From a virus: a stretch of 64,000 nucleotides of DNA. Of the stretch, positions 811 to 56,966 are shown piece after piece. The stretch is from IMG/VR virus record IMGVR_UViG_3300028833_000146, positions 9,322 to 73,321 of that record; one strand, written 5' to 3'. How positions within the stretch are numbered: position 1 is the stretch's first letter; each line of letters begins with the position of its first letter. The translations under genes were made by a program, and so were the position numbers. Under the pieces are notes generated by a model that saw only the letters and a program-made list of their open reading frames with translations, ran no database searches and was not told where the DNA came from.

Positions 811-2076
811 TTACGGTCCTTCTTCTCGGACCGTTTTATTTTCTGTATATGTTACTGGTGTATCGCTATTTGTTGTCGCAAATTGCTGACCATTTCCGAC
901 ATTAAGATTCTTATTTCTAAGCTCATCTGCAATAGGATTATCAACCGGCTTCATGCCAATGATCTGCCTAATCTCATTAGAAGAAGCGATCTCATTGCGG
1001 GTAAACTTATCGGCAATTTCTGCAATTTGACTTACAGGTACCATCTTAAATGGATCCTTAAAGTAAATAATCGATTGATTCTGTGATCTAGCGGTTTTTG
1101 TCAAGAACTTGCGCTTCATCTCGTCAACTATAGCAGATACGATAGGCTCTATAGTACGATTTGTATAATTAAGCATCGCCTGTTCATCTGCTGTGCCTTC
1201 GAGAATTTCTTTTGTAATACCGAGCTGGCTATACAGCATATCTGTAAGATACTCAATCTGTTTCATAAGATTGTTATCCAACGACCGATTAAGCTGCGTT
1301 ACTCTCTCGGTGCCGTCAGTATATGCTATTCCATATTTGGAATTAGCAAGCTGCATCTCAATTTCTCTTCGACGAGTTTCAGCTTGCTGTCTACGTTGCT
1401 CGTTCTTAATAATGTAAGGCAACTGAATAATAAGATCCAGCTTACCTGCTCCGCTTTGTTCATCAATAACGTCCAGTAAGTTCAATTTACGAATAAGACG
1501 TTGCATAGTAGAATTCGGTTCATTCATAATAGCATAAAGCGGATTCTCGACTATTGCCACTGTCTTCTTTGGTAAAACAACTCGCTCTTTAAGCCCAGTT
1601 GTCTCATTAAAAACCATAAGGCCAACCGAATAAGGATACCACTCGATAATCTTACCCGTTCTTAACTGCGTTATGTCATAAGATCCGGTTAATCTCGGGT
1701 TCATCGTGGTTTCCACAGGCACAATAGCCACACAACCATCATCAAACATGGACTGAACAACATCTTGCATAAATGCGCGGCCTGTTTGGTCCACGTTAGC
1801 TTCAAGTGTCAAACACGTATTAAGACCAGAATCGATAACAGAAGTGAATCTTCCATTCTCATCCAGCCTAACATGCTCAATGGTTATTGCTGCGCAATCA
1901 ATCGATATTCTGTTGTATACACTTGTTATGATCGACTTCTCGTTTCCCCTCGTAAATCTCATACGATCCGGACGATAAGAAGATACATAACCAATGTTTG
2001 TATACTGATCGGGAGGATCCCGATTCATGAAAGCATTCCAGGCATGCTTAAGCCTATTGGAAAATGTCTCGGGCAT
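811..2076 (-). CDS. Putative portal protein
   Basis: 421 aa; GGGAGG RBS; sits between terminase and prohead protease in the canonical TerL-portal-protease order. Confidence 0.5.
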   Translation of the reverse strand: MPETFSNRLKHAWNAFMNRDPPDQYTNIGYVSSYRPDRMRFTRGNEKSIITSVYNRISIDCAAITIEHVRLDENGRFTSVIDSGLNTCLTLEANVDQTGRAFMQDVVQSMFDDGCVAIVPVETTMNPRLTGSYDITQLRTGKIIEWYPYSVGLMVFNETTGLKERVVLPKKTVAIVENPLYAIMNEPNSTMQRLIRKLNLLDVIDEQSGAGKLDLIIQLPYIIKNEQRRQQAETRRREIEMQLANSKYGIAYTDGTERVTQLNRSLDNNLMKQIEYLTDMLYSQLGITKEILEGTADEQAMLNYTNRTIEPIVSAIVDEMKRKFLTKTARSQNQSIIYFKDPFKMVPVSQIAEIADKFTRNEIASSNEIRQIIGMKPVDNPIADELRNKNLNVGNGQQFATTNSDTPVTYTENKTVREEGP

Positions 2077-5063: not shown

Positions 5064-6811
5064 TCGAACGCGTCTTTGTTAAGCTTGTATGCTATAAACG
5101 CATCCATCATAGCAGCGACATTATCGATCTTCTGCTCATGACGTTTCTTCCATAGCTTACGGTTTCCGTTCGTGTCTTCCAGAGTAATAGCATTACCCAT
5201 CGCAAATGACATAAGCTCTTCATCAAATATTAAGAGTCGGTCCTCTGCAAGCTTCTTAAGCTCACCAAGAGGTACCGACTCTGTTTTTGCACCCTGTATT
5301 ACTTTCTCTATTCCAAATGGTCCGTTCTCTGTTTCCCAACGTTCTACAAACGCCCTGGCATTATATGGGTCGAATCCAAAGCATCTAACGTCATACTGCA
5401 TCTCGTTTATATGATTGTCGAGGTCATCGTAAACTTCTGTAAGATCGAGTAACGACCCTTCCAGTACTATTAAACTGCCTTCTCTCATAAATTCTTCGTA
5501 CTTAAGCCGCATAGCAAGCGGCAGCTTACTAAACGTAAACGAAGAAATGTAGCTTCTGGTCTTAATACCGAATCTACCTCCGCCAAGAGGGAACATAAAT
5601 GTAAAGGCACAAAAATCGTCACCCTGTGAAAGATCAGCGCCCATAGCACACGGCATATTCCAATAACTCTGTCTTTTGTGAGGAATAGTTTCCTCATAGG
5701 TAAAGAAGTAAGTGTAGCCCTCCATAGGGATACCAAACCGCTTGGCAAGAATGTCGTTTCGTGCTGCGGGAACTTTCTCAGCTCTTTCTACATCCAACTG
5801 ATAAGTTTCGTAGCTTACTGTCTTTCCTATATTAGGATTAGCTTTAATCCACATTGCAGGATCTGCTACTTCGTCCACACTATCAAGCTTGTAATACCAA
5901 ATCGAAATGTGAGGATTAACATAGTCGCCTTTTAAGATGTCCATTAGTTCCATCTTAATAGTATCGCCACTACCATTTCGAACTGTACCCTCAGAACTCA
6001 TGGCTACTATAAGATAGTCGTCTACACCGCCCTTAGCTGCGCCTTGCTCAATTGCACCGATAGGATCTTCTCTAAGATCTCCGCTCAGCCATTCGTCAAC
6101 CGTAGCGCATTTTACTCGAAGGCCTTGCAACTTATTAATGCTCATAGGTCTTATTTCGAGGAGAGATCCGGTCAGAAAGTTCTCAATACCTTTCTTTGTA
6201 CTGGCTAGTTTTACTCGAGCAGCCTTTGAGCCAGTCGTGTTCTGCAAACTGCCCTCAGTTAAAAACTTAAATAAAGGCCCCCTTGATCTTACAATCGAAG
6301 TTCTTATTGGTGACAGTATTTCTTCAGCCTGTTTCATAGTAGGAGCGGTTGTAATTTGGTGAGTAGTAGCAGTGTCTATATTAAGAAAGTAATTTTGTAT
6401 GCAAGAACCGTACATGCTCTTCGCAGCACCTCGAGCAACTATAAGATACTGTTTATTTACGAGTCTCTTTTTTATGCGCCTTGTAACATAACGGCCACCA
6501 TGACCCTCGGTATAAGGCTCATATACAGTTCTTTCTACAAAATAGTACCAGCCAAATATCTGCTCAGCCCAGAGCTTAAATGTATCAAGTAGAACGAGGT
6601 CTGATCCGTCGGTCAAAGTAAGCTCATTCTCGCAATACTCAATAAATCCAGAAATAGCCTGATCATCGTAGTATACTCCAGGATTCGCTATAAGAGCATC
6701 AATACGATTCATCTCCATCGATATCTCTCTGCAAACTGGAATCTCACCACGAATCACAGCGTCTCTAAATTTACCGTAGTAAAGTGGCGTTGCAGTGTTC
6801 GAAAGTGACAT
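5060..6811 (-). CDS. terL: Terminase large subunit
   Basis: 583 aa; Walker-A-like LIVARGAAKS in N-terminal ATPase; C-terminal nuclease-like region (FGFDPYNARAF); Terminase_1-like organisation. Confidence 0.85.
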   Translation of the reverse strand: MSLSNTATPLYYGKFRDAVIRGEIPVCREISMEMNRIDALIANPGVYYDDQAISGFIEYCENELTLTDGSDLVLLDTFKLWAEQIFGWYYFVERTVYEPYTEGHGGRYVTRRIKKRLVNKQYLIVARGAAKSMYGSCIQNYFLNIDTATTHQITTAPTMKQAEEILSPIRTSIVRSRGPLFKFLTEGSLQNTTGSKAARVKLASTKKGIENFLTGSLLEIRPMSINKLQGLRVKCATVDEWLSGDLREDPIGAIEQGAAKGGVDDYLIVAMSSEGTVRNGSGDTIKMELMDILKGDYVNPHISIWYYKLDSVDEVADPAMWIKANPNIGKTVSYETYQLDVERAEKVPAARNDILAKRFGIPMEGYTYFFTYEETIPHKRQSYWNMPCAMGADLSQGDDFCAFTFMFPLGGGRFGIKTRSYISSFTFSKLPLAMRLKYEEFMREGSLIVLEGSLLDLTEVYDDLDNHINEMQYDVRCFGFDPYNARAFVERWETENGPFGIEKVIQGAKTESVPLGELKKLAEDRLLIFDEELMSFAMGNAITLEDTNGNRKLWKKRHEQKIDNVAAMMDAFIAYKLNKDAFD

Positions 6812-8829: not shown

Positions 8830-9260
8830 ATTACTCTTTCTCCTTTGCCTTGTTTCCATGGGCATGTATCATTTTTCTTTCTCTCTATAGGATCTTGTGG
8901 TAGCAAGTCAAAGCTGCCATAGTGAATAGCATTGTGTGTTCTATCCCCAACACAGATTAAGAACTCTGGATTCAATAAAATTTCGCGCTGGTAAATAATG
9001 TCATCTGAATCTACAGGATTCATATGATGCACTATAATTCGGCCAGCTATAGGATAGTTTGCTAATCCAAATTCGCAGCCATTATCGCGGACTATAACGC
9101 TATTTCGAACTCGCTTCCAAATTTCTGTATGATAAAAAGTTTGGTTCAAATATCTCTCGAATCCAAACGTCTCCTGACCAACAAGACCTCCGAGTTTCAG
9201 ATAGTTAAATCTTTCTACTAGAGAAGGAAGCTGAATCAGTTCACTGTAAGTCTTCATCAT
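8826..9260 (-). CDS. HNH endonuclease (packaging-associated)
   Basis: IIVHHMNPV...DRTHNAIH HNH motif; typical position next to the terminase genes. Confidence 0.75.
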   Translation of the reverse strand: MMKTYSELIQLPSLVERFNYLKLGGLVGQETFGFERYLNQTFYHTEIWKRVRNSVIVRDNGCEFGLANYPIAGRIIVHHMNPVDSDDIIYQREILLNPEFLICVGDRTHNAIHYGSFDLLPQDPIERKKNDTCPWKQGKGERVI

Positions 9261-9588
9261 TCTCCTGGGTACTCTGGCCGCTGTAACCTCTAAATGCCTT
9301 CATAGCATCAGCGTATAGTTCTTCGATATGCTTAGCAGATTTAAGTGCTTCGGTCTTTGCATCTAGCAACTGTGCCTGCTTAGCCATTATTTCTTTTTCT
9401 AACTTCTCTTTGGTCGAACCAAGCTTTAGATAATGCGTTATTACTTGTGAAGATGCCGTTCCATCTCTTAATTGCTGCTCCGCCAAATCAACAGCCAGTG
9501 CTATAAGTTGATTCTCTCGCGCTTCGGGAGTACCTGCAGGAGGACTTGGTAGAGTCGATTTTAACGGCTCTTTTCTAGTTTTTCCCAT
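9241..9588 (-). CDS. Hypothetical helical protein; possible terminase small subunit
   Basis: AAGGAGG RBS; 115 aa helical protein directly upstream of HNH and terL; no motif recognised. Confidence 0.35.
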   Translation of the reverse strand: MGKTRKEPLKSTLPSPPAGTPEARENQLIALAVDLAEQQLRDGTASSQVITHYLKLGSTKEKLEKEIMAKQAQLLDAKTEALKSAKHIEELYADAMKAFRGYSGQSTQENDEDLQ

Positions 9589-9695
9589 AGTTCTCGCCTC
9601 CTTACTCTGAGAATCAACAGGGTATTATATGACTCTCTGGAGGAATTGCTGTGGTTCGTAATATATTTCCTCCTACTTTCTATTTCATCTTGTTT

Positions 9696-9920
9696 TCATA
9701 TATCAGGATAACCTGCTCCTGGCGAAAACTGATCATGCTCGAAGTTGCACTTCCGTCCGCATGTGCATCTTATTATTCTTGCGGGATTGTAATAAAAGCA
9801 CTTTTTACAAGGGCGTTTACTTTCAATCTCTTCTATTCTGGCAAGACGCTCTTCAACTCTCTTCTTAGCGTCGCCATCTACTAATATTTGCTGTGCAAAA
9901 ATACCGGCCATACTATTCAT
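9696..9920 (-). CDS. Small Cys-rich (zinc-ribbon-like) protein
   Basis: AAAGGAAGA RBS; CKKCF...CTCGRKC. Confidence 0.4.
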   Translation of the reverse strand: MNSMAGIFAQQILVDGDAKKRVEERLARIEEIESKRPCKKCFYYNPARIIRCTCGRKCNFEHDQFSPGAGYPDI

Positions 9921-10083
9921 GTCTTCCTTTATGTATTATTTAAAGAATCATTTAAAGAGACGTAGGCAGAAAAGCAGAAGAAGTTTCTGTTGGTGTCATT
10001 ACAATCATCTGGAGAGGAGAAAAGCAGGGTCAACCATATTTCAAGAAAAACCTACGTCCCTTTAAATAACTCTCTAAATATAA

Positions 10084-10157
10084 TACCGAGGGAAGGATTC
10101 GAACCTTCGATCATACGATTATAAGTCGTCCGCTCAAACCTACTGAGCTGCCCCGGT
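10084..10157 (-). tRNA. tRNA with anticodon UAU (Ile, AUA-reading)
   Basis: Hand-folded cloverleaf: acceptor ACCGGGG/CCTCGGT (one G-U), D-arm GCTC/GAGC, anticodon loop CTTATAA, T-arm GAAGG-TTCGAAT-CCTTC, discriminator A; 74 nt. Confidence 0.8.
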
Positions 10158-10211
10158 AAAAACATTCTCAAAAATATCCCTCCGGAGAAATTCCGAAGAG
10201 GCCGGCGATGT

Positions 10212-10247
10212 AGAGGGGGGTGTATATAGTATAGGCCCCCCTCTAGG
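10212..10247. other. GC-rich 9-bp-stem hairpin (AGAGGGGGG...CCCCCCTCT) beside a second palindrome TAGGGTCACCCTA
   Basis: Perfect G/C stem in an otherwise AT-rich ~400-bp intergenic region next to the tRNA; no adjacent T-run, so not a classic terminator. Confidence 0.3.
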
Positions 10248-10656
10248 GTCACCCTAATATATAGGGGTGGTTTGGATATTTTTGTCTAAAACATTTCAAA
10301 ATACTACTTATTTCTTGAAATAATTATTAAATAGTTTGAAAAGAATCATTTAAAAAAGCTTTTTTAAATCTTTTCTTTTAATTGACCCCCCTTACTTACA
10401 AACAAAAATACATTTTTTTTTGTTTGTAAAGCAACAGGATCGCTAATGCATAACTTTTCTTAGTTATTTCTTAACAAATTCGCTAACAACTAAAACAAAA
10501 TTCCATTTAAACAAATCACAAAACGATTCTTAAATGCTACAAAGGTATTAGTTTGTTAAACTTTTTCTAAAAACTAATTAAAATTATTAGTTAAAAGAAC
10601 AAATTTTTAAACTTTTGAACTTTAAAAGTTAATTCTTTTCAGAAAAACTATTAAAA

Positions 10657-10923
10657 CTAATCAAGTTTCATTTCTTTTGTTTCTTTAATGAACACATTTA
10701 AAGGATCATATTTAATAATTTCGTCAATTGCACGATTAATTTCTTTCTCATTTTCGATAATTGAAAGTTGATCAGAAGTATATGCAAAACGACCAATCAT
10801 TCGAGTTGCTCTATTTCCTGTATAATTCTCATAAGCTTCCCATTCATCTCGTTCATTAAAGTAACTATAAGGATTGTCTTTCGTTGTAAGAGCACTAAAT
10901 AGCAATTGGAGCACCCCCTTCAT
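10657..10923 (-). CDS. Hypothetical protein
   Basis: 88-aa ORF overlapping the 3' end of the RNAP-like gene by 29 nt; no RBS seen; weak call. Confidence 0.3.
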   Translation of the reverse strand: MKGVLQLLFSALTTKDNPYSYFNERDEWEAYENYTGNRATRMIGRFAYTSDQLSIIENEKEINRAIDEIIKYDPLNVFIKETKEMKLD

Positions 10924-13900
10924 CTACTTGCATGTTGTTTTCAGCACCTTGTGAACCGAATCCAACAGCAATACGATCGACGGCACCTACAGAAATACCC
11001 AAAATGTCGGCTATGGTGGCTGGGCTGTAACCTTTTTCAAGATAGTTTCGAATTCTAGCAGCTTTTGATTCACTAACTTGATTTTTGTAATCTTTAGGCA
11101 TAGCTCTGTCTCTTAGCTTGTCCATGTCAGTGTTCTCAAGAATCTGTTTCAATTTATTTGCACTTATTGCGCCTGCTTGAATAGCTTCCCATTCTTCATC
11201 AGATACGTCTATACGTGCCTTCTTAGCCCCATACCGTACCCGTGCCTCTGCTAGCGCTTGGGATTTGACCTTTTTTTCATCTTCTGATGACATATTTGGA
11301 TTGTCTTGCTTTTTAGTCTTGAAAATCCAGTTAGCAGAGAGCTGTGCTTGCCGTTCGCGGGGGGAGTTCTTAAGGGCGTCGTCTAATTTATTATTCAATG
11401 TCGCAATTTCATTCTGATAACGGGCAGCAGCTTCCTTACTATAGGGGGTAGGGGCGGTAGCAATTAGTTCTTTTCTTGCTCTATTAGCAAGGGCATAAAG
11501 ACTATTCGCATAGTTAGCGTACGCAAGCTCTTGCTGCGTCTGATAATCTGACACCAAATATCCAGCGTCACCATACGTCTCTAGGGCGTACTGCATCTTA
11601 GAGATCTTTTGCTTCTTTACAGTAGGCTTATCCTCATATCCAACAATAAGAGGCTTCTGAATATCCATACCGGTTTTAGGGTCCTGTATGGTTATCGTTT
11701 CCTTTATTTTACGCCCATGACTGTCCTTTAAAACGACACCATTTTCATCTCTTTTATACTCGTATATGGGCTTATTATATGACTCGCCTGTTACCTTAAA
11801 GACTTTTTCACCTGTAGAAATATCAATTCCGTTTTTTACATTTGGATTGTTTGGATCGGTGTATGCTGTACGCCGTTTCGGAATATCCATAGGTGATTTT
11901 GACTTGGATATTAACGTAGATGCGCCGCCATTAGATTTTCCTTGATATTTAATATAAAGTTCTTTGACCTTATTATCTTTAGCACTCTGTCTCCAATCTA
12001 GATGATGTTTCTCAGCATCAATTATAACCATGGAGTGCTTGACTGCTCTACATATTTCATCCTCGTCTGCACCTTTAAGCGTCATATCAGTTATCAAATT
12101 GGATATTTTACCCATCTGATCCTGTTTCCTAAACCCATGCGCAGCATCAACAGGATATAAAGGAGAATTCTTATCTGTGATCTCGTACTGGTCTGTTGTA
12201 AAGTTCTCTAGCCCTTTCAACTTTGGGGTGGCTTTTATTTTGGTGCCAACGCCACCAAGTGATATCGGTATAACAAGGGCTGTATCGCCATCGAAATCTG
12301 CACCTGAAAGCTGAGAAGCGGCCTTCATGTTTATTCCGACTGCATCCGGTGCTTGTCCTATAATATCAATACCAGGTTTATATTCATTATTAACTTTCAA
12401 AACCGGTATTTCAAAGGTTCCTCCGTGCGGATGTCTAACAAGCACAACTGTATCACCAGTATGATAATTTGGCGCATAAATCTGTCCTTCAGGAATATCA
12501 GGAAGAGGCAGCAAAAGAGCACTAGTTTGTCCAGGAAGAGACTGTGCTTTCAAATGGACAGCCGAAGCATCGCAATCATCTGCGAATGACTGAAGATACT
12601 TTTGTCTGATCACCGGATTCGTGATGGCCATAATATCTTCATACTCATTCAACTTGCCTTGATAAGTAATATCCAGCTGCTGCTTGATAAGCGGAATATT
12701 CTGCTTTGAAAGAAACTGTGCAGAAAGGCGTTTCTTCCAGTTCATCCAGTCGCCTTCAGAGTTAACAATGTTAATAGCAGAAAGATGCTCTTTTCCGTCA
12801 GAACCAATATAGAATCTTTGACCGCCTTTTTCTTCTGGCTTAATCGCCGCACCAAATACGTTGTCTCTGTCTACAACTTTAATTCCATTTTCTTCTTTTG
12901 TTTTAAACTTTTTAAGTACATCTGACAAAGGTGTTCCTTCTGGATGCTTTGTATTAAAACGAACGTCAACTCCATCTGGAAGATTGTCGGAATAAATGGC
13001 CATTCCTTTGAGATAGTATTTGTCATCTACAGCAATTCTTACCTGAGCATAGTTTGATTTGCCAAGAGAAATGTCTTCTACTCCTCTTCGCAACTCAATT
13101 AGTCCATCCATTTCCGTTCCGCCAGTTCCATCTGGTTTGCCGTAGTTAATGGCTATGCGACTTGAATCTATGCTTTGAGGATAATACATTCCGTATTTAG
13201 TTCTCTCAAAACCCGGATGTTTTTCCTGAGCGGCGATAGAATATCCATCGTAATCGACAACAGATCTAATGTCTTCTAAGTTGTTAAACACATCTTTCTT
13301 GGTCACTCCCGGAGGAGCAAGAACTTTAAGGTGCGTGAATGAACCTGGATTTGTTGCCTGAGGAACAGTCAAATCAGAGAACAAAGAATATCCATTAGCC
13401 TTCAACAACTGTGCAGCTGCATTAAGGGTAACATCTGATACTCCGAGTTCTCTCTCAACACCAGCGCCAATATCCAGCATACCAACAGCATCTACCTGTT
13501 CCTTAAGTCTGAGAGCAATTGAAGATGCAGTTTTCTTACCTAATGCATTGTCCTGGGGTTTTAAATAGTTTCTGACTGTTCCTTCTGACAGGCCAAGCAT
13601 TTTGCCAATAGTACCGTTAGAATATCCATGGCGCTTCAAATCGACAACTTGCGCAATGTCGTCGATTTTCTTTGCTTCTTTGTTTGTGGTTATCTTCGCT
13701 CTAAACTCTCCAGTGGACATGTTCATGTCATGAGCGATTTGTGTATTGTTCCAATCAGGATGCTCTTTCTTTATCTCGTTTAATCGAGAAGCAAAGCCTT
13801 CATCTCTTTGAAACGGATTTTTTCCTGAACCAAGCGGATATCGACCTGATCCAACAGGCGCTCCATCAAGTTTACTTCTTCCTTCATGAGCTAAACTGAA

Positions 13901-13948
13901 AATATCCAGATCGTTGATCTCATTAAAGTAGGTTTCTTCCATGATCAT
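10895..13948 (-). CDS. Putative YonO-like single-subunit RNA polymerase (beta-prime-type DPBB with ADFDGD) flanked by N- and C-terminal HTH domains
   Basis: ~1017 aa; VVLVRHPHGG...GINMKAASQLSGADFDGDTALVIPIS aligns by eye with the beta-prime NRAPTLHR...NADFDGDQMAVHVP catalytic region; HTH-like GYSNGTIGKMLGLSEGTVRNYLK near the N-terminus and GYSPATIADILGISVGAVDRI near the C-terminus; start chosen at ATG 13948 (ATGA overlap with upstream stop), 13972 or 13942 are alternatives. Confidence 0.5.
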   Translation of the reverse strand: MIMEETYFNEINDLDIFSLAHEGRSKLDGAPVGSGRYPLGSGKNPFQRDEGFASRLNEIKKEHPDWNNTQIAHDMNMSTGEFRAKITTNKEAKKIDDIAQVVDLKRHGYSNGTIGKMLGLSEGTVRNYLKPQDNALGKKTASSIALRLKEQVDAVGMLDIGAGVERELGVSDVTLNAAAQLLKANGYSLFSDLTVPQATNPGSFTHLKVLAPPGVTKKDVFNNLEDIRSVVDYDGYSIAAQEKHPGFERTKYGMYYPQSIDSSRIAINYGKPDGTGGTEMDGLIELRRGVEDISLGKSNYAQVRIAVDDKYYLKGMAIYSDNLPDGVDVRFNTKHPEGTPLSDVLKKFKTKEENGIKVVDRDNVFGAAIKPEEKGGQRFYIGSDGKEHLSAINIVNSEGDWMNWKKRLSAQFLSKQNIPLIKQQLDITYQGKLNEYEDIMAITNPVIRQKYLQSFADDCDASAVHLKAQSLPGQTSALLLPLPDIPEGQIYAPNYHTGDTVVLVRHPHGGTFEIPVLKVNNEYKPGIDIIGQAPDAVGINMKAASQLSGADFDGDTALVIPISLGGVGTKIKATPKLKGLENFTTDQYEITDKNSPLYPVDAAHGFRKQDQMGKISNLITDMTLKGADEDEICRAVKHSMVIIDAEKHHLDWRQSAKDNKVKELYIKYQGKSNGGASTLISKSKSPMDIPKRRTAYTDPNNPNVKNGIDISTGEKVFKVTGESYNKPIYEYKRDENGVVLKDSHGRKIKETITIQDPKTGMDIQKPLIVGYEDKPTVKKQKISKMQYALETYGDAGYLVSDYQTQQELAYANYANSLYALANRARKELIATAPTPYSKEAAARYQNEIATLNNKLDDALKNSPRERQAQLSANWIFKTKKQDNPNMSSEDEKKVKSQALAEARVRYGAKKARIDVSDEEWEAIQAGAISANKLKQILENTDMDKLRDRAMPKDYKNQVSESKAARIRNYLEKGYSPATIADILGISVGAVDRIAVGFGSQGAENNMQVDEGGAPIAI

Positions 13949-14595
13949 ACTACTGCGTCCTCTGCTTTCCATTTACTTACGATTTTGTCCAATGTTATAA
14001 TCTGGTTCATTGCAGTCTGAATATCCATAGGATCTGGATCGCTTTCAATAATCTCGTCGCTTTGATAAATCCTCAAATGTGTAGAAATATCCATAGGTTT
14101 TACTCCGTACTCCAGACAAAAAAGTGCAGAATAAATTAGTGGCTGTTCAATATGAGCCGGAGTAACTCCACTTTTATAATCGTGAATTCTTAATTCTTTG
14201 TCGCGAAAATATATAGCGTCAGTTGTCCCGAAACAATTGTCAGAATAATAGAGCAGAACTTCTGAATCCATCTGAAAACCGATAGCATCATTTACATAGC
14301 GCTTCAAATTATCAAACTTAGAATCGAGATCAATCACGCTCATCGGTAAACCCTTGTCGAGCAAGTACATCATCACATCATTTTTGTCAGTCTTGTACAT
14401 TCGCAGCCGATATTTAATTCTCTTTTCGGCATATTCATGAAGGGTTGTTCCGATCACAGTAGCGTACTGAGCTTTGTACCTTCGAAATATCAATTCTAAA
14501 GATTCTTCGTCAGTTCCATAATTAAGCCAGCTGTAACCGCTTGGATTAAATAGTGCATGCTTACCTACTAAATTTGAGTGCTTGTTCCAGTTCAT
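13945..14595 (-). CDS. PD-(D/E)xK-family nuclease (exonuclease-like)
   Basis: 216 aa; TTDAIYF...ELRIHDYKSG resembles a D...(D/E)xK core; AGAGG RBS. Confidence 0.45.
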   Translation of the reverse strand: MNWNKHSNLVGKHALFNPSGYSWLNYGTDEESLELIFRRYKAQYATVIGTTLHEYAEKRIKYRLRMYKTDKNDVMMYLLDKGLPMSVIDLDSKFDNLKRYVNDAIGFQMDSEVLLYYSDNCFGTTDAIYFRDKELRIHDYKSGVTPAHIEQPLIYSALFCLEYGVKPMDISTHLRIYQSDEIIESDPDPMDIQTAMNQIITLDKIVSKWKAEDAVV

Positions 14596-14869
14596 TTAAA
14601 ACCTCTTTCTTGTTTTCTGGATAAATGTAACTTGCATAGGACATCTCATTCATCCTTTTCACATAATATGGTTGATTTCCTCTGTCTTGCGATTGAAACA
14701 TTTCTGCTTCATCACGTTTACACTCAAGCGCAGCCCAATTATTATTGTAAAGAACTAAAAGGTCTGGAATTCCCTGAATATATCCAGCATCATTCTTAAG
14801 AACAATACATCCAGGAAACCGACTTTTTAATTCTTTAATCAGCTTTGCTTGAAAATTATTCTCTTTCAT
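14561..14869 (-). CDS. VRR-NUC domain nuclease
   Basis: GIPDLLVLYNNNWAALECK matches the VRR-NUC PD..(D/E)xK core; GGAGAGAAG RBS. Confidence 0.65.
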   Translation of the reverse strand: MKENNFQAKLIKELKSRFPGCIVLKNDAGYIQGIPDLLVLYNNNWAALECKRDEAEMFQSQDRGNQPYYVKRMNEMSYASYIYPENKKEVLNELEQALKFSR

Positions 14870-15455
14870 TTCTTCTCTCCAAAAAGAAATAGGAGATGGA
14901 AAATATCCATGAAGAACACACTCCGTCCATTTTCTCTTTCTCTCCTATTATGCGCGGTGTATTTTTTACGCTGAAATTAATTGGCATTAAAAAATGTAAA
15001 AATAGCTATAAAAATACGTCTTATTTTTTGTCCACAAAAAATTGGCCAAATTGCCCAGTTTTTTTTTTATTTAAATAAAAAAAAAAAAAAAAAAAAAAAT
15101 TAATAATAGGAAAAAAGGTGGGCAAACTGGCCAAGATTATTTTTTGTACCCACAAAAAATCAATTTTATTGCCACTTTTTTATCGTTTTTCGCGTTTTTC
15201 GTCAACTTTGGAAATATTTGTGCCCACAAAAAATAGCCAATTTTGCCCACTTTTTTTCTGGCCAAAACCCACTTTTTCTGGCCAAAAACGATTATTTGTG
15301 GGCACAAAAAATATCCATTTTTCAAAAAATGCAAATTTTGGCCAGTTTTTATCGATTTTGGCCAGTTTTTGAAAAGTCAAATCTGGCCAAAAAACACGAT
15401 TATTTGTGGGCACAAAAATTATTTTTCGCTATTATTTGTGGGCACAAAAAATATC
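14870..15455. repeat. Non-coding palindrome/iteron cluster with AT-only palindrome T10-ATTTAAAT-A23; candidate replication origin or regulatory hub
   Basis: Six copies of the palindrome TTTGTGGGCACAAA(AAAT) (15028, 15143, 15217, 15292, 15396, 15430); at least eight TGGCCAAAA / TTTTGGCCA units; direct repeat CACTTTTTCTGGCCAAAA twice; homopolymers T10 (15059-15068) and A23 (15077-15099); the ORFs predicted here are low-complexity artefacts. Confidence 0.6.
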
Positions 15456-15500
15456 AGAAAAATCAAAAAATGAGATGCGTTGTATTATTTGCATCTCATT
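15456..15500 (-). terminator. Intrinsic terminator after the RHH gene
   Basis: 10-bp stem AATGAGATGC/GCATCTCATT followed by a T-run on the minus strand. Confidence 0.5.
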
Positions 15501-15509
15501 TATATTGTG

Positions 15510-15710
15510 TTATGGTCTTACGTTTTCGTACTTTTCCCACATTTCTTCCAGCGCTGTTCGCATGATTTCAGACTTTCCACAAGAAAACTCTTTGGACAAA
15601 ATACTCAATTTGCGCCGTTCTTCTATAGTAAGCCTCAGTTTGAAAGAGTCACATCTTTTATTTACAAAGTCTATTCGAGGGCGGCCTCTTCGTTTTTCTG
15701 CGCTTTTCAC
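15510..15710 (-). CDS. Ribbon-helix-helix (MobC/CopG-like) DNA-binding protein
   Basis: KRRGRPRIDF...RLTIEERRKL pattern; probable GTG start at 15710 overlapping the upstream TGA (GTGA coupling) after GGAGGAGGA; the track TTG start at 15740 lies inside the upstream gene. Confidence 0.5.
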   Translation of the reverse strand: MKSAEKRRGRPRIDFVNKRCDSFKLRLTIEERRKLSILSKEFSCGKSEIMRTALEEMWEKYENVRP

Positions 15711-16270
15711 TCCTCCTCCAAATCGTTCAGAGCTACACAAATTAGATTCAGAAGTTTTTCAACTTTAGATTTCGTTGCGGTATTAAATATAATCCCTTCT
15801 CGGTTTTTATCGTACCAGTCAAATACTTCGTATAAATTTCCTGTTCTCCAGCTGAAAGACCACCAGTCGCAGATCATCTCCAAAATATCCATATCAGGCA
15901 TTTCTAGTGGCTCAACCTGCTCATCGCTGTGGTCATCATGTATCAAAACCCAGTACTGCCAATGATGCGGATTCGAATGTATGTGATGTAACCAAGCATA
16001 ATTAAAGCTCTTATCGACCTCTTCCGATTTAGACTCACTGTCATCATTTCCGTAAAAATAGTCGTCATAAGCCTGATATTCTTCTAAACTGTATTTCGAA
16101 ACATCGTGATTTCTAATCCTTTCAAGCATTTTCTGCTCGTTTTCGGCACCGAGCATGTCCGGAAGTGTTTCCTTTAACTCTTTTTCATCAATGTGCTGTC
16201 TGATCCACAAATATCCAGTTCTTACGGCATCAATGTGACTTTTCAAATACTCATCATACTTTTTGCTCAT
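15707..16270 (-). CDS. Hypothetical protein (His/Trp-rich)
   Basis: ATG 16270 after GAGGG RBS. Confidence 0.45.
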   Translation of the reverse strand: MSKKYDEYLKSHIDAVRTGYLWIRQHIDEKELKETLPDMLGAENEQKMLERIRNHDVSKYSLEEYQAYDDYFYGNDDSESKSEEVDKSFNYAWLHHIHSNPHHWQYWVLIHDDHSDEQVEPLEMPDMDILEMICDWWSFSWRTGNLYEVFDWYDKNREGIIFNTATKSKVEKLLNLICVALNDLEEE

Positions 16271-16463
16271 TGTTATTACCCTCATCTTCTGAATCGTTTT
16301 TCTTAACTCGCAAGTGGACAGAATTCAAAAGCGGCATCAAAAGAAACCACAGTAATGAATATCTATTAAAATGTATAGACGCATACACAATTCCGCATAT
16401 AAAAGCAATGTTTTCAAGCATATTACATATTGAATTAATAATAAAAGCTTTTTCCATATTCAT
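16254..16463 (-). CDS. Small hydrophobic protein (uncertain)
   Basis: 69-aa ORF, no clear RBS. Confidence 0.3.
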   Translation of the reverse strand: MNMEKAFIINSICNMLENIAFICGIVYASIHFNRYSLLWFLLMPLLNSVHLRVKKNDSEDEGNNNEQKV

Positions 16464-16614
16464 AACACACCCAATCTATGTAAAAAATATCCATAAAGAA
16501 CCAGCAAAATACCGCTAAATACTTTCACTCGACCAAATTTCAAATGGTCCATGAAGTCAAACCATTTTCCTGCAATCAAGCACACTAGTACCAGGGCACA
16601 TAAGCGAACAAATA

Positions 16615-16860
16615 TCAAGCTTGCTCACCGCACATTTTGTTCCAACCGCTCCTTAGATCCTGCATTACATCTTTAAAATCATTCTCGTCTTCACCATAGC
16701 CGACAGTCGAAATTGGCATCAAGATACATTTATCACAGCCAACGGTCAAATATCTAGTCCCCCATTCGACTTCTTTTGGCTTTCTACCACAATAAGGGCA
16801 CTTTCCCCATAATTTCTGCTGATTTTTAAGACTAATTTTCAGAATTTCGTTGTTTTCCAT
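16615..16860 (-). CDS. Zinc-ribbon protein
   Basis: AGGAGA RBS; CPYCG...CDKC. Confidence 0.5.
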   Translation of the reverse strand: MENNEILKISLKNQQKLWGKCPYCGRKPKEVEWGTRYLTVGCDKCILMPISTVGYGEDENDFKDVMQDLRSGWNKMCGEQA

Positions 16861-16872
16861 TATTAAATTCTC

Positions 16873-17094
16873 CTAATTTCGTAGATTCCAGTTCTTAATA
16901 GCTCTTTTCTCAGCTTCTAAGTAACTCCTTATCCCAGCAGTTCCGGTCTTAGAGCTTTCAATTGTGGACCTTCTCCTACATTCAGGACATTCTAAATAAA
17001 TGAAACCATCATACAAGCACACTAAAGGCACCGCATGACAGTTTCTGCAAGGTAAAACAGTCCCGTCGAGTTGTCGTTTTAAAATATTACTCAT
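16873..17094 (-). CDS. Zinc-ribbon protein
   Basis: CRNCH...CPECRR; ATGA overlap with the upstream gene. Confidence 0.5.
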   Translation of the reverse strand: MSNILKRQLDGTVLPCRNCHAVPLVCLYDGFIYLECPECRRRSTIESSKTGTAGIRSYLEAEKRAIKNWNLRN

Positions 17095-26693: not shown

Positions 26694-26875
26694 TTTTCTT
26701 TACCCCATTTGTATTTATAAGACTCGCACCAAACATCCGATCCCCAAGCATGTCTCTTGTCACAATGAATGAATTTAGGAGGACCTGCAACAATCGTCAA
26801 ACCGAATTTGCATTTACTACAAGTGACATTTTCTTTATCAACACCATACTTTTCAGCAAGCTCTTTTCTATTCAT
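26690..26875 (-). CDS. Zinc-ribbon protein
   Basis: CSKCKF...HCDKRH...C. Confidence 0.45.
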   Translation of the reverse strand: MNRKELAEKYGVDKENVTCSKCKFGLTIVAGPPKFIHCDKRHAWGSDVWCESYKYKWGKEK

Positions 26876-28155
26876 TTCCCCTCACCTTTCATAATCCGGT
26901 TAAAGTACCGTCCTTCGTTGAATGTCTTCTTCTCAGCAATAGCTCTGCCAATAGCAATATCAATTGGCGCTTTTGACTTCAGATGGTAGTAATACAAATC
27001 CTTAAACGGTGTATTGAGTCGGTCAATTCGTCCCTCAGCCTGTTTCATCGTCTTATAGCTGTAGTTCTGGCTGTAAAATATAATTGTATCTGTCTTGATG
27101 CAATTCCAACCCTCACACAAATTGTACTGCACTAGAAAGCACCACTTTTCCCCACTTGGTATCTCCTGGTGTTTATGCCCATTCCACTCAGCCACTTCAA
27201 ACCCATAAGCTATATCCGTAAGAGTTTCCTTAATTACCTTGAGCTCATAGTCAAAGTTGTAAAATATAATTGCTTTTGGATGCTCATCAAGGATGTCCAG
27301 CAGCTCATACAATCGCGAAACGTCTTTATTAACCGATTTCCTCAGGCAGTAACACAAACTGGAAGCATTATCGAGTGGCTCGTCCTTCCAAGGATCCCAA
27401 CGTTTTTTCATAATTTGTTTGTAGATGTTCTTATCCCATTCGCAATTAATATCAATATGGTGAGCAGTGGTCGGTCTTTCGAAGTCCATGTCTACAAGGA
27501 CCCGCTCCCTTAACCTCTCGAGTCTCTTCGTGTTGAAATATCTATCAACTTTCCAATAAGTGCCCATCCGCTTGAAAGAAACATGCTCCCGGTTGAACTC
27601 ACTGCGGTTTTTATAAAAACCATTCGCCACAAATACAGGAATATAATCAGTCCATGTATCACCAGGCGTAGCGGACAGTAAGATCCACTGGTTCTTCTTA
27701 GTAATCTTCAGAAATGCTTTGACCCAAGCGCCGTTCCCAACAACTCGCTGCTCGTCAAATATAAAGAACGCGCCTTCGATGTCAGAGTATTTATGGATGT
27801 TGTTCCATGAGTCGATCACCACTTTTAGATCAACGTATGGTTCCTTGCCACCACTATCTGCCTCTTTCTGCTTTTTTCCCTCACTAGTCGCAGAATATAA
27901 AAGAAACGGAATGCATTCTTTCTCCCATTCGAATGTATCCCGCTTCCTCGCAGTTGTTATTATGTATAAATCAATCGGATGAGTCATAAGTTCGAACTTC
28001 GGTCTTATTCTCCCTCCGCCCACTACACAGTGGTAATAAGCCAAAGCCGTTCTCGACTTTCCGGATCCGACCCCGCCACAGAGAATGCAGCCATTATGCA
28101 TGTTTTTTAGCGCTTCTCTCTGATGGTCATACAGGTTAATTGGCAATTTGCTCAC
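26872..28155 (-). CDS. SF2 (DEAD/DEAH-like) helicase
   Basis: GTG start; LYDHQREAL, Walker A GGVGSGKSRTAL, motif II FIFDEQ, motif III LLSATPG, motif VI QAEGRIDR. Confidence 0.8.
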   Translation of the reverse strand: MSKLPINLYDHQREALKNMHNGCILCGGVGSGKSRTALAYYHCVVGGGRIRPKFELMTHPIDLYIITTARKRDTFEWEKECIPFLLYSATSEGKKQKEADSGGKEPYVDLKVVIDSWNNIHKYSDIEGAFFIFDEQRVVGNGAWVKAFLKITKKNQWILLSATPGDTWTDYIPVFVANGFYKNRSEFNREHVSFKRMGTYWKVDRYFNTKRLERLRERVLVDMDFERPTTAHHIDINCEWDKNIYKQIMKKRWDPWKDEPLDNASSLCYCLRKSVNKDVSRLYELLDILDEHPKAIIFYNFDYELKVIKETLTDIAYGFEVAEWNGHKHQEIPSGEKWCFLVQYNLCEGWNCIKTDTIIFYSQNYSYKTMKQAEGRIDRLNTPFKDLYYYHLKSKAPIDIAIGRAIAEKKTFNEGRYFNRIMKGEGK

Positions 28156-35329: not shown

Positions 35330-35881
35330 TTAGAATGGTAATCCTTCGTCATCTGAATTAACAGCAGAATATCCATTTCCGACTCCTCCGCCAATTTCAG
35401 GAAGACTCTGGAAATCTTCGTCTGAGGTAAAATCATCTTCTTTAATCCAAACAATCAGCCCTCTAAGGTAAGCAGTGATTCCTCTGTTAGAACCTTTTTC
35501 ATACGGGCTGAGTGTAATCTGAACTTTTGCTCGCTCGATATACTCCCGATCGAGATTGCCGACGGTTTCCATTGTAAGACGCATCTTACCACGCGGTGTC
35601 ACTCTCCACATTTCTTCCGGAGGATAGGCACCAAACAGCACTTTCAGGGTGTACAGCGGCTCTCCATCACCATTCTCAGGAACATGTGTTCTGACATTTG
35701 CACCTTTAATTACTACTCCACTTTTAGTTACAAGCTCGACATTTGAAAGCAGATCCACCTGCTCGCTGTTTAGCACCACATTAAAATATCTTTTGCCTTC
35801 TTCTGTATAATCTGTGGCTCTTCCAGAAAAGTTTTTCCATCTAAGTTCGACATCTCTAAGAGTTACATTCATTCTAGACAT
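35330..35881 (-). CDS. Putative ssDNA-binding protein with SSB-type acidic C-terminal tip
   Basis: C-terminus ...NSDDEGLPF resembles the DDD(I/L)PF tail of bacterial SSB; no motif recognised in the rest of the protein. Confidence 0.4.
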   Translation of the reverse strand: MSRMNVTLRDVELRWKNFSGRATDYTEEGKRYFNVVLNSEQVDLLSNVELVTKSGVVIKGANVRTHVPENGDGEPLYTLKVLFGAYPPEEMWRVTPRGKMRLTMETVGNLDREYIERAKVQITLSPYEKGSNRGITAYLRGLIVWIKEDDFTSDEDFQSLPEIGGGVGNGYSAVNSDDEGLPF

Positions 35882-38514: not shown

Positions 38515-41500
38515 TTAACTTACAAACCACTCAAAGTCACCGAATTTAGAAATATCAGTTACCGCGTCGTCTGCTAGGCGCTTGTAATAGCTTGTGTCAA
38601 CTTTATCCTGAAGATCTCTCAATCGTACGACTTCGGATTCTAGCCACCGGTAACCTTTCGTTCCAGCGACAGCACCTTTTTTATCCCCGTTTATTCTGAA
38701 TAATTCACCTGCACCATAACCAGCTAAAATAGGTGTAAACTGTCCAACACGTCCAACGAAAATATAATTATGCTCGTCTTCAGCAAGCCCTTCATTCATG
38801 TCCAAATATATGGCAGCATCACCTGCAACGGATTTTGTTTCGCAGTAGTCTTCAAACACAATTGGCTCGTGACTGAAGAGTGTCTTAAATACATACGGAA
38901 CTGCAAACTGAGTTCCAGTAGCAGTCCATCTGGTTGGTTCAGGATTTCCTTTTGCCGTGGCTTTTTTACAAGCTTTGACCCAATCTCCATCGTCTGTTGT
39001 TACTTTCGCGATATAAACAGCGTCATTTACGAGGCAGATCTTCTCGAACTTATGCTCGATCTCAAATCTGTAGCCGTATTTCTCTCCAAAGCCAAGAATA
39101 AATTTCTGAAGCTCAGGAGTAGGATCCACAACTTTGATCGAGTCTGTTTTACAATGGATCGGATGGCCTCCGCGGGCCTTAACCTCCTCCAGCAAATCGA
39201 CCATAAACAGTGCGCCACGCTTTGCAACAATATTATCTTTATTGCGCTTGTCTCTAAACGGACTCTGATAGCCGTCTCTCTCTATTTGAGCAGTCAGGCC
39301 GTAGACAGCGTTGATAGCTATTTTTTCAGCTGAGGAGATGCCTTTAGGATCAGCGCCCTGCTCTAAGAACGGAGCCAGTCTTCCTCCGAACAAAGTTTTT
39401 GCTTTTTCAAGATCTTCATGCTTAATGGCTAAACGTGACTGCAAAATATCATAAAAGTTGTGCGTGTATTTCCCAAATAAGTATTCTGTGCAAACACTAT
39501 TTGGGTGCTCTGATTCCACATCGAATGTTATTACGTTTGAGTACATTCCAGGCTCGGACCATACGAACCCACCTTCTCCTACATAGTGCCCTCTATAATA
39601 AGAGCGCTGATCCTTTGGTTTTGAAATATCAAACGTATACCCTTCGAAGTATGGAAGAACACTTTGAGCTTTTCCGTGCTTTTGTGCCATCATTTTAGGA
39701 TAGTTTGTTTCAAGAAATTCCCGCATCTCTTCCGGAATATCAGCAACTGGTTCTGCCAAATTACGGTAATAGAAAACTGATTGCGGAGATCTATTTGTGC
39801 CAAATATCAGTTTTGCTGTTAGACTATTCGTTGAATCGTTAGCAGTGCCGCCGGCAAGATCCGCTAGTATCCTTCTGGCAATAAAGTCGGACTCCAGATG
39901 CTCAAATACAGCTTCAGTTGCAAGAACATCGTTTACACAATAATCTGCAACGAGATCCCATTTATCTTCAGGAACAGGCTGATCCCATGGCAGACCCAAC
40001 TCTTGATGGTGAATGCCAAGAGATATTTCCCATTTTTTTAAGCTCTGTTTTTTAGCTGCAAAGTCATAAATATCCGTGTACGATATATTGTATGCAGCTC
40101 CGATTTTAGCGGCTCTCTCATTAGCAATTATAGCTTTTGAACGATTATAGAGGTCTAAGTTACTTTCTCCCAGTAGTCTTGCATACAGAATGTGATTATC
40201 ATAATCGCGATTATTAAAGCCAATTAATTTAAACTTAACAAGTTCTGAAATATCAGTAGGAGTTGGGTTAATTAGCTTCACGGGGTTTTTTCCCTTAGCT
40301 TTATACACAACTACAAATAAATTAGGAAACACCTCAACGTCGAAAAATATCAGTGTATCGAAATCGTATTTTTCAAAGTTTTCGCTGAGGATTTCCGATT
40401 TCCACTTCATCTTGTTTGTTAAATTCAAACAATAATCAGCGTTGTGTGTACTTCTGCCAGCAAAACTAATCACCGCAGCGGCCATATCCGAAACATCGTA
40501 TTCCAGATTATCTTCATGAGCTTTTTCGAGAGCTTTATAAATATAATCTATACTTGTTTTTGTAGCATGCGGAGGATACTCTTTCAGCAAATTGCGCTTA
40601 ATATAAGTTCGTATGGCTTTTTCGTTTTTAAACCCGTCGAAATTGATCATTTTTTTAGTAGCTTTTAATGGCAATCCCGAATCAATTGTTGCTATGGGCA
40701 GGTTATTGCATCTCGTTAATTTTCTTCTTAAAGAACTTTTGCCAGTAAATATCTTTATTTCGATAGAGTCATCATAGATCCTGCTTAAATTATTTACATC
40801 ACCGCTGTAAATATAATGAAGATGAATCCCCTCTCCAGATTTACTGCACTCTGCATAAGTCGCAGGCCATTTTGCAGCAGCTTCTGCATTTAATTCGAAC
40901 GATTTTTTCCCGTCAGAATCCTTGATGTCAAAATCGACTACAATATAATTTTGAAACTCTTCCGGAAACAATAGATAATGCTCTTTGGTTGTATCGAGAT
41001 CTTTAAGCCTAGTCTTAACTTTATCCCATGGTTTATATGGCGTTCCGTTTTCATTTGAATACTGGGCAGGCCATTCTTTACAAATATCATCTAAAATAGA
41101 CTTAGTTTCTGTCAAAGAAAGCATTTCGGTTTGAGGCCTTGGCTCGTTCACATAATCAAGCGTATTCATAAACTTGTCAGTTATAAACCCAGAATATAAG
41201 TTTCGTACCCTGCTACCTTTGTCGTCGGGATTTTTTCCCCTCTCCTCAAAATCTTTGAAATAGGACTTCAATTCTTCTTTAAATATCCGCATAGAATACG
41301 GAAACGCCACCCTTGCGTCATCGCAGTAGGTCTTATACATCTCGTACGCGGCTTTCAGCGTTGTAGAATCGTCACGTTTGAATACTTCATATGAATCCAA
41401 CACGAAATTGTAAAAGTCATTCGACGCTCCTATCATAGCTGTTGGAATATAATTATTATAGTAACCAGGATCTTCGTTATAGACATCGAGACAATGCTGC

Positions 41501-56639: not shown

Positions 56640-56966
56640 TCACTTCATAAAACTTGTGTCATAATATGGCGGGAACGTGATTGTGAACTTATATGAATCA
56701 TCAGACCCAACATAAAAATAAATATTGTCTTTATTCATTCGATCTTTAAACATAATCCTCTTCAGATTAAAACGAAGATCGTCTGAAATTTGGATCTTCA
56801 TTTTATCGCAGAGTGCCGAAATACTTACATACCCTTTAGCCGCAAGAAGATCATTGTATTCTCTAATAAACTCTATCGCTGCCTCTTCATCTCGGAAATT
56901 AAATTGGTCCAAAATATCATTCACTTTATCCTGTGTATGGTATGAAAGCGCATATTTAGTTACCAT
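56640..56966 (-). CDS. Hypothetical protein
   Basis: 108-aa ORF. Confidence 0.4.
   Translation of the reverse strand: MVTKYALSYHTQDKVNDILDQFNFRDEEAAIEFIREYNDLLAAKGYVSISALCDKMKIQISDDLRFNLKRIMFKDRMNKDNIYFYVGSDDSYKFTITFPPYYDTSFMK

Follow-up and report, generated by a model that had tools for sequence, protein, structure and literature searches.

A conserved repeat array with an A/T-only core as a candidate replication origin, next to a separate candidate late-operon control element, in a cos-type gut siphophage

The locus

The non-coding region at 14870–15500 of a 64-kb stretch of viral DNA (IMG/VR virus record IMGVR_UViG_3300028833_000146, record positions 9,322 to 73,321; this whole stretch is called the window) is composite, with a terminator at 15458–15501, a candidate replication origin in the form of a repeat array at 15020–15450, and a control element at 14879–14972. 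Coordinates are window positions, and L-numbers (L019 etc.) denote the related loci or contigs that were compared. The window is DNA of a cos-type siphophage, a gut phage, and in the map of open reading frames (ORFs) virtually every gene is encoded by the minus strand. Among cultured phages, Faecalibacterium phage FP_oengus is the nearest relative, though a distant one (polymerase 52% identical).

In the sense of transcription, the gene order is primase-polymerase, single-stranded DNA-binding protein (SSB)-like gene, helicase, small genes, DUF5662, ribbon-helix-helix (RHH)-like gene, array, VRR-NUC-type endonuclease, exonuclease, RNA polymerase (RNAP) homologue, a small gene, cos, tRNA-Ile, terminase and portal. 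Because the genes lie on the minus strand, the RHH-like gene is upstream of the array, whereas the genes for both nucleases and the RNAP homologue lie downstream. The identities of these neighbours (RHH-like, VRR-NUC, PD-(D/E)xK nuclease, RNAP-like) are those given in the original prediction, which had taken the region for a candidate origin or control hub. The replication module (helicase, SSB-like gene, D5-type helicase/primase-polymerase) has the array at its distal end. The features of the intergenic region are as follows.

15458–15501, minus strand: intrinsic terminator closing the upstream unit, an 11-bp stem (AAUGAGAUGC.../...GCAUCUCAUU) and then UUUUUUGAUUUUU
15020–15450, no strand: non-coding repeat array of about 450 bp, with 14-mers and TGGCCA and GTGGGC cores
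15020–15160, no strand: 141-bp imperfect dyad centred on the A/T core (inverted repeat of 30 nt, 80%)
15059–15108, no strand: A/T-only core of 50 bp, candidate DNA-unwinding element, made of T10 (15059–15068), ATTTAAAT (15069–15076), A23 (15077–15099) and then TTAATAATA
14940–14972, minus strand: conserved box in the window variant AGCGTAAAAAATACACCGCGCATAATAGGAGAG, with a -10-like CATAAT at 14947–14952
14879–14946, minus strand: leader hairpin and U-run (CUCCUAUUUCUUUUU), -19.3 kcal/mol, z = -2.8

The repeat array and its A/T-only core

All motifs of the array have the core TGG(G/C)CA in common. The 14-mer (TTTGTGGGCACAAA) is a quasi-palindrome, TTTGTG(GG/CC)CACAAA, present at six sites in the array and nowhere else in the window. 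Four sites are exact (15217 on the minus strand; 15295, 15403 and 15435 on the plus strand), the site at 15143 carries one mismatch, and that at 15025 is degenerate. With up to two mismatches allowed, 10 matches on the two strands are found against 0.47 expected, a number reached in 0 of 100 shuffles. Judged from the central GG/CC, the sites at 15025, 15143 and 15217 have one orientation and those at 15295, 15403 and 15435 the opposite one. The 14-mer embeds GTGGGCA, the core of the commonest repeat in related phages, AAAGTGGGC. The original prediction had listed at least six copies of a 14-bp palindrome and at least eight TGGCCAAAA units. The first number holds for quasi-palindromic sites, four of them exact, and not for a true palindrome; the second is reached only if one-mismatch variants are counted, since five copies of TGGCCAAAA are exact.

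TGGCCA occurs exactly seven times (15043, 15128, 15259, 15279, 15339, 15359 and 15384), accompanied by A/T runs and with two pairs spaced 20 bp apart, while GTGGGC(A)/(T)GCCCAC cores lie at 15052, 15118, 15245 and 15268. There are also two longer exact duplications, one of a 16-mer (ATTTTGGCCAGTTTTT, at 15335 and 15355) and one of a 23-mer (15288–15310 and 15396–15418). Of the 31 TGGSCA hexamers in the window, 14 are located inside 15000–15470, where 0.13 would be expected (Poisson P ~3e-24). The association of a repeat cluster with an A/T element that had been noticed earlier is real. It exceeds chance, and nothing else in the window scores comparably as a repeat cluster (70 for the array, 9 for the runner-up).

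The 14-mer is window-specific, since it was looked for in the relatives and found in none of them. An exact search of IMG/VR with the 17-mer ATTTGTGGGCACAAAAA returned 18 unrelated single matches, in line with chance. A search of 9000–17000 against Rfam families gave one tRNA at the gathering score, with mir-1972, potC and mir-548 inside the array far under threshold, and a scan for consensus sigma-70 promoters gave nothing exceeding the shuffled expectation.

The A/T core is unique in the window: no other A/T-only run reaches 22 bp, and no 50-bp duplex is less stable (-45.9 kcal/mol versus a mean of -62.9 ± 3.9 kcal/mol, a distance of 4.4 standard deviations). The perfectly palindromic A/T-only element with an A23 tract, as originally described, was recovered: T10-ATTTAAAT-A10 forms a perfect 28-bp palindrome, with A23 at 15077–15099. 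The left arm of the surrounding dyad reads [TTTTTTGTCCACAAAAAA][TTGGCCAAA][TTGCCCAG] and the right arm [GGTGGGCAA][ACTGGCCAAG]...[TTTTTTGTACCCACAAAAAA]; folded as single-stranded DNA, the dyad gives -28.9 kcal/mol (z = -4.25).

The length of the A/T core differs by small indels between near-identical relatives (L027 5755–5789 versus L028 5758–5794; L033–L040 at about 5485–5515). Examples are A8 versus A9 and extra TTA units, which fits the slippage that the original prediction expected for A23. A near-identical genome for comparing the A23 length itself was not found by contig searches with VRR-NUC and P0001 (the database version of the RHH-like protein) or by megablast against phage collections; genome and metagenome scans for near-identical relatives yielded 1 and 6 loci only.

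Conservation of the layout in related phages

The same layout recurs upstream of the genes for VRR-NUC, the Cas4-like exonuclease and the RNAP-like protein in two cultured phages, FP_oengus and Streptomyces phage Bilo, and in dozens of relatives from IMG/VR. Nine diverged genomes share one plan: several upstream repeats, a bracket copy, an A/T-only core and an inverted bracket copy. This layout is kept even where, in some lineages, the repeats have unrelated sequences.

Repeats of the type TGGCCA(C)/CCCAC are present in the window, FP_oengus, L025, L027 and L028, where the bracket reads TGGCCA-N-CCCAC-T run / core / A run-GGGC-N-TGGCCA. Other loci carry GGTTGCAGACCGGCAACC (L033–L040), TGTTAAGGTTAT (L019 and L020) or ATGTCAAAATGTCAAT (L047); for the repeat types of these loci, inverted copies flank the core on both sides and extra copies stand upstream. 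In FP_oengus (26900–27085), two copies of TGGCCAAAAACCCAC are followed by an A/T-only core and the inverted GGGCTTTTGGCCA; within 50 kb of DNA with 49% G+C, an A/T-only run of 22 bp or more occurs in this core alone. In the 58% G+C DNA of phage Bilo, the helicase gene is followed immediately by AGATTTCGCATG repeats and a T5A8T6 palindrome.

The enrichment of A/T runs was measured on loci retrieved independently, by means of the conserved box described below. In the 1.6 kb upstream of the box, the density of A/T-only runs of 20 bp or more is 0.37 per kb, compared with 0.025 per kb elsewhere (15-fold), and such a run is present in 31 of 57 loci. At least three AAGTGGG repeats, usually in both orientations, stand in this 1.6-kb stretch in 59 of 109 non-redundant loci. 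Conservation of the layout together with turnover of the repeats is as expected for an origin co-evolving with its initiator.

These comparisons also bear on the possibility that the array has no function of its own, being low-complexity DNA prone to slippage or what is left of a mobile insertion. The variable length of the A/T core between near-identical relatives would agree with this, as would the relatives that have no array at the equivalent place. The three-part layout recurs with unrelated repeats in phages of Firmicutes and Actinobacteria, however, and in DNA of 58% G+C an A/T-only palindrome would not persist by drift; absence of function is accordingly very improbable.

The array as a candidate replication origin

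Since the repeats surround the sole A/T-only segment and relatives keep the layout at the same place, the array is most likely a replication origin of the kind that combines iterons with an unwinding element, an interpretation to which about even confidence is given. It agrees with the iteron and A/T-rich-element architecture of the original prediction, now supported by the same architecture at the same position in FP_oengus, Bilo and uncultured relatives.

We infer protein binding, melting and initiation at the array in the following way. An initiator protein would bind the GTGGGCA/TGGCCA repeats, which bracket the 50-bp core in inverted orientation and have more copies on the upstream side. 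The A- and T-runs, which lie between the G+C cores of the array, could bend the DNA. The A/T core, as the window's easiest 50 bp to melt, would then open, and the D5-type helicase/primase-polymerase (38515–42474) would be loaded. The 14-bp quasi-palindromes with their embedded GTGGGCA may, more speculatively, add control, possibly through the adjacent RHH-like protein.

Lambda ori, P1 oriR, the origins of iteron plasmids and lactococcal phage ori resemble the array in having clustered short non-coding repeats beside the most meltable A/T segment, near replication genes, and in the lineage-specific sequence of the repeats. Unlike iteron origins, whose function is established where that of the array is predicted, the array has no initiator gene that contains or abuts it and no DnaA boxes, and instead of one tandem iteron it has two to three related repeat kinds (TGGCCA, GTGGGCA and the 14-bp quasi-palindrome) in both orientations. 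An A/T centre with inverted initiator sites and one-sided auxiliary sites is likewise characteristic of herpes simplex virus 1 (HSV-1) oriS, the core origins of SV40 and papillomaviruses, and phage P4 ori/crr. Such core origins are used by initiators that are superfamily 3 (SF3) helicases, and P4 ori/crr is bound by the alpha primase-helicase. The likeness extends to the replicase of the window, which combines a D5/DUF5906-type NTPase with primase and polymerase parts; by contrast with SF3-helicase origins, no origin-binding domain was identified in this replicase, and its N-terminus has no clear link to the repeat type. The primary origin of phage T7 likewise combines an A/T-rich region with promoters of the phage RNA polymerase. 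In the window, which also encodes an RNA polymerase, the A/T-rich element is close to a single-copy, strongly conserved, promoter-like box that, differently from T7, points away from the A/T core toward VRR-NUC, with cargo genes often intervening; its role as an RNAP promoter is a candidate one.

Several observations weigh against initiation at the array. No array was found at the equivalent place in L022, L026, L038 and L042. A search for clusters of DnaA boxes (TTATCCACA) found none, with one 8-of-9 match in the array and 26 matches versus 18 expected in the window. At a scale of 100–200 bp, the A/T-rich DNA beside cos (10.28–10.66 kb) is less stable than the array region. The literature searched contained no experiments on any member of this phage group.

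Skew analysis, proposed with the original prediction as a check on it, had a mixed outcome. Within the window, GC skew takes its biggest step, 0.17, on the array at 15.3–15.7 kb (roughly double the runner-up at 4–6 kb spans), and in FP_oengus the largest or second-largest step lies 0.6–1.3 kb upstream of its array (L043 25700–26400). GC skew stays negative throughout the window, never changing sign, and the step runs contrary to the one that a classical bidirectional origin would give: coding-strand skew climbs over about 25 kb, then drops abruptly, and it falls across the array in nine of nine genomes. These nine comparisons are not independent, because the downstream genes are orthologous in all nine, and the fall is equally explained by a boundary between early and late genes. 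The step is counted here as a boundary marker and as no evidence for initiation.

A step of this kind would also fit a border between expression classes, as would suit an array that is an operator or enhancer for an early-to-late switch. In that case, an RHH-like or other repressor or activator would bind the repeats, and the role of the A/T tract would be that of a promoter or of curved or UP-element-like DNA. The array does lie between a terminator and a promoter-like box, which it abuts in several relatives (20–150 bp); in many others, up to 2 kb of unrelated cargo genes separate the two. The A/T cores of relatives end in a -10-like TATATAA-G or TATAATA-G, often followed by a gene, whereas the core of the window has no TATAAT-type ending and no gene stands between it and the box. 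The RHH-like gene adjoins the array, and both this gene and the 14-mer are window-specific, yet phages with the same TGGCCA/GTGGGC repeats have no RHH gene. Moreover, inverted repeats around a core of 0% G+C are atypical of operator arrays. On this evidence an operator function is considered unlikely, though it is the strongest of the alternatives to an origin.

Candidate readers of the repeats

The proposed origin implies an initiator, and a protein that would read the repeats was sought among the RNAP helix-turn-helix (HTH) domains, all ORFs of the window against the related loci, array-adjacent genes and the N-terminus of the polymerase. No protein co-varying with the repeat, and thus no initiator, was found in these comparisons, which for most relatives covered 5–6 kb of flank; this is a further point against an origin. 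In particular, no DNA-binding gene is consistently adjacent to the AAAGTGGGC arrays, and the N-terminus of the primase-polymerase gave no clear signal when compared with repeat type.

The gene closest to the array encodes the RHH-like protein.

15510–15740, minus strand: small RHH-like gene, last of the upstream transcription unit; 76 aa from TTG 15740 (database version P0001, 66 aa, GTG 15710)

The original prediction called this product a MobC/CopG-like RHH protein and linked it to the repeats. A weak RHH likeness stands, with matches to RHH profiles that are sub-threshold only. The protein matches PHROG 876 ('transcriptional repressor') at E 6e-5 and RHH_3 at E 0.009, under the cut-off, and its only homologue scores 20.2 bits against RHH_1, for which the cut-off is 20.5. 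The AlphaFold2 (AF2) monomer has two helices after an extended segment, at a low-confidence mean pLDDT (predicted local distance difference test) of 67; a sequence search of the PDB gave no match, and a fold search gave no informative result. The protein is a near-orphan, with two matches in 1.84 billion representative proteins, namely itself and one 46%-identical protein. The proposed link to the repeats finds no support, since no homologue of the gene was found in the related loci, including relatives that share the TGGCCA/GTGGGC repeats. The RHH-like protein is thereby ruled out as the reader of the family-wide repeats; as a conjecture, it may read the window-specific 14-mer.

A small RHH gene beside arrayed sites is known from R1 parC/ParR, CopG and P22 Arc/Mnt, and here an RHH-like gene stands beside quasi-palindromes. 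Differences from these systems are the sub-threshold RHH call, the lack of a partition ATPase and the absence of the protein from relatives with the same architecture. RHH centromere-binding proteins (R1 ParR, TP228 ParG) bind arrays of short repeats next to their own genes. The array, abutted by the RHH-like gene, could by analogy be a centromere-like partition site of the parC/ParR or parH/ParG type, which would imply a plasmid-like prophage. There is, however, no ParA- or ParM-type ATPase adjacent to it (the gene upstream of the RHH-like gene is DUF5662) or among the annotated genes of the window, the cultured relative FP_oengus integrates by a tyrosine recombinase, and the architecture is kept in relatives without the RHH gene. 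The chance of a partition site is therefore judged to be slim.

The second candidate is the phage RNAP, for which the array could be a loading site or promoter cluster. The polymerase homologue, encoded about 1 kb downstream of the array, contains two HTH domains, one sigma-70 region-4-like (residues ~100–140) and one resolvase-like (residues ~960–1000), that might read the repeats. The repeat type does not follow the polymerase: the RNAPs of L045 and L047 share 70% identity with that of the window, but their loci contain other repeats, whereas FP_oengus, with an RNAP of 42% identity, has the repeats of the window. Lineages that differ in repeat type still have both HTH domains conserved, without co-variation. 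It follows that the RNAP is most probably not the reader. The repeats themselves stand in both orientations and nowhere else in the 64 kb. An RNAP loading or promoter cluster is thus improbable.

The terminator and the late-operon control element

The genes downstream of the array are as follows.

14561–14869, minus strand: VRR-NUC-type endonuclease, first gene downstream of the array, with 49–65% identical homologues in 24 IMG/VR contigs
13945–14595, minus strand: Cas4-like PD-(D/E)xK exonuclease (DUF2800 E 1.7e-6; homologues annotated as Cas4 family exonuclease)
10895–13972, minus strand: YonO/RdRP-like single-chain RNA polymerase homologue, 1025 aa (PHROG 4291 E 1e-300)

The homologue of the first gene has the annotation 'VRR-Nuc domain protein' in the Bilo genome and 'endonuclease' in that of FP_oengus; a Pfam scan of the product in the window gave no VRR-NUC match. 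The RNAP homologue has weak Pfam matches to RdRP, sigma-70 region 4 and HTH, and its translation contains a DFDGD motif. Both of its HTH domains are well conserved family-wide, with the window, L045 and L047 forming a distinct subgroup.

The hairpin at 15458–15501 is predicted to terminate the early/replication transcription unit. Its RNA fold has a free energy of -13.7 kcal/mol (z = -5.5), equalled in 0 of 200 shuffles; the terminator scan missed it because of its loop of 12 nt.

On the other side of the array lies the conserved box, about 32 nt long, with the near-invariant family consensus CGCGAAAAAAACATGCCCTTTTATGAAGAGAG. It is single-copy in the window and in each related locus examined. 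A 14-base core pattern retrieved 120 IMG/VR loci, and in 89 of these the box is extended by CGCGAAAAA on its upstream side and by a purine run on its downstream side, features that the search pattern did not require. VRR-NUC follows the extended box in 77 of 81 loci, at a median of 100 bp, and an RNAP homologue is located downstream in 56 of the 61 loci with enough flank, compared with VRR-NUC/RNAP genes in 2 of 31 chance-like matches of the pattern. Versions of the box were found by eye in Lactococcus phage P092 and phage Bilo; a blastn search of cultured phages with the box consensus returned FP_oengus only, where the region corresponding to box and hairpin is at 27.68–27.76 kb.

The leader hairpin begins in a purine-rich AGGAGAG just past the box and overlaps it, and the U-run ends directly before the ribosome-binding site of VRR-NUC. 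When leaders were folded one by one, a hairpin and U-run were found at the same place in all 20 relatives examined, with different stem sequences. RNAalifold predicted no pairs on a MAFFT alignment of the leaders, because their loop lengths differ too much to align. The leader hairpin looks like a terminator or attenuator. In L045 (150–420), box, hairpin and U-run are present in two tandem copies upstream of VRR-NUC.

The distance between array and box in relatives varies from 20 to 2059 bp, with cargo genes between them. Array and box are thus separable and constitute separate modules, and the array is not simply the operator set of the box. The gap itself is a hot spot for cargo genes in L053–L172, where one apparent membrane-protein family was observed in 31 loci. 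In L025, an insertion of 1.2 kb is bordered by a duplicated stretch of 28 nt from the 3' side of the terminator. The original prediction had also suggested a control point of the downstream operon in this region; a candidate for such a point exists, as a separate element at 14879–14972 and not as the array.

This element would control the operon of VRR-NUC, exonuclease and RNAP, which continues across cos into the packaging and structural genes. It could stop incoming transcription and start or license late transcription, possibly as a promoter of the phage RNAP. A variant box (...CATAATAGGAGAG) and, with it, a variant N-terminal HTH of the RNAP are common to the window, L045 and L047. That the box variant tracks the HTH subgroup fits recognition by the RNAP, as far as sequence comparison goes, with shared ancestry as a confounding factor.

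A tentative, more specific proposal is that the box is a promoter read by the phage YonO/RdRP-like RNAP through its sigma-region-4-like HTH. Transcripts of the host polymerase would stop at the overlapping terminator, and those of the phage polymerase would start inside its stem. Together with the array, the box would then form one replication/late-transcription switch in a supergroup spanning Firmicutes and Actinobacteria. This proposal is considerably less certain than the origin and only slightly more probable than the operator function discussed above. YonO transcribes the late genes of SPbeta as one operon from one start site, with an undefined promoter sequence, and which promoters YonO-type two-barrel RNA polymerases recognise is acknowledged to be unsettled (PMC5467207).

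Lambda pR'-tR' with the antiterminator Q and the YonO late promoter of SPbeta resemble the box in having a single promoter-like site, an immediate terminator hairpin and an operon that runs across cos into the structural genes. In contrast to late control in lambda, no Q-like gene was identified in the window, the RNAP gene is itself downstream of the box, and the control element is a predicted one.

Genome context and the genome end

The remaining features used in the comparisons are listed below.

38515–42474, minus strand: D5-type helicase/primase fused to DNA polymerase, with a D5/DUF5906-type NTPase domain and primase and polymerase parts
35330–35881, minus strand: SSB-like gene
26872–28155, minus strand: DEAD-box helicase
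10200–10244, minus strand: cos-type genome end, a G-run/C-run dyad and then ...CTCTACAT / CGCCGGCC (the slash marks the end), homologous to related contig ends
5060–6811, minus strand: large terminase
811–2076, minus strand: portal

Many small genes and then DUF5662 lie between the helicase and the RHH-like gene. Many genomes of actinobacteriophages and Lactococcus 1706-like phages also have the module of VRR-NUC, exonuclease and RNAP, in each case at their right end. The supergroup of RNAP-bearing phages has been described at the protein level in a preprint, whose text does not contain the words promoter, repeats or intergenic (bioRxiv 10.1101/842583).

Seven related contigs end at the homologue of cos (a dyad ending ...CAT), about 3.6–4 kb downstream of VRR-NUC, and this sequence is also where phages Bilo and P092 have the right ends of their deposited genomes. 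As cos is inside the window, the window spans the joined genome ends. The array is about 4.8 kb away from this cos-type end, which disposes of a terminal-repeat or pac site, the alternative named with the original prediction. In general, terminase-binding sites can be arrays of repeats with bent A/T-rich DNA, and the related contigs L034 and L045 begin inside the A/T core, as would suit a packaging site (pac or cos) or terminal repeat. Breaks of contigs in an A/T-only low-complexity run would, however, be expected assembly artefacts, the family cos dyad lies at 10200–10244, where the seven contigs and the right ends of Bilo and P092 stop exactly, and the array homologue of Bilo is about 4.7 kb inside its right end. 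A packaging function of the array is the least credible of the explanations considered. The array was also rejected as attP, because the integrase of FP_oengus is located at the prophage end.

About 400 bp of A/T-rich non-coding DNA (10250–10660) between the small gene following RNAP and cos form the window's least stable 100–200-bp duplex. This segment is probably the terminase-binding side of cos and could be an alternative place for DNA opening. Just past cos, at the start of the packaging/structural arm, is the sole tRNA of the window, a tRNA-Ile with the anticodon TAT (10083–10158, minus strand). Elsewhere, a 448-aa protein (56956–58302, minus strand) consists of repeated D5-like regulator (PHROG 323) segments and an HNH endonuclease domain.

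Implications

In the literature searched, no origin or late-control site was found described for this widespread lineage, which comprises Oengusvirus-like gut phages, Lactococcus 1706-like phages and several actinobacteriophage clusters. For these phages the array provides a precise, conserved candidate origin that could be tested in cultured FP_oengus or Bilo. With their constant layout and changing repeats, the related arrays form a natural series for finding the cognate initiator. The box matters more than the array and is the more novel lead, being single-copy, oriented, near-invariant and tied to a polymerase gene in at least 56 genomes. If its proposed function is true, the box would be the first promoter consensus for the YonO/RdRP-like polymerase family.

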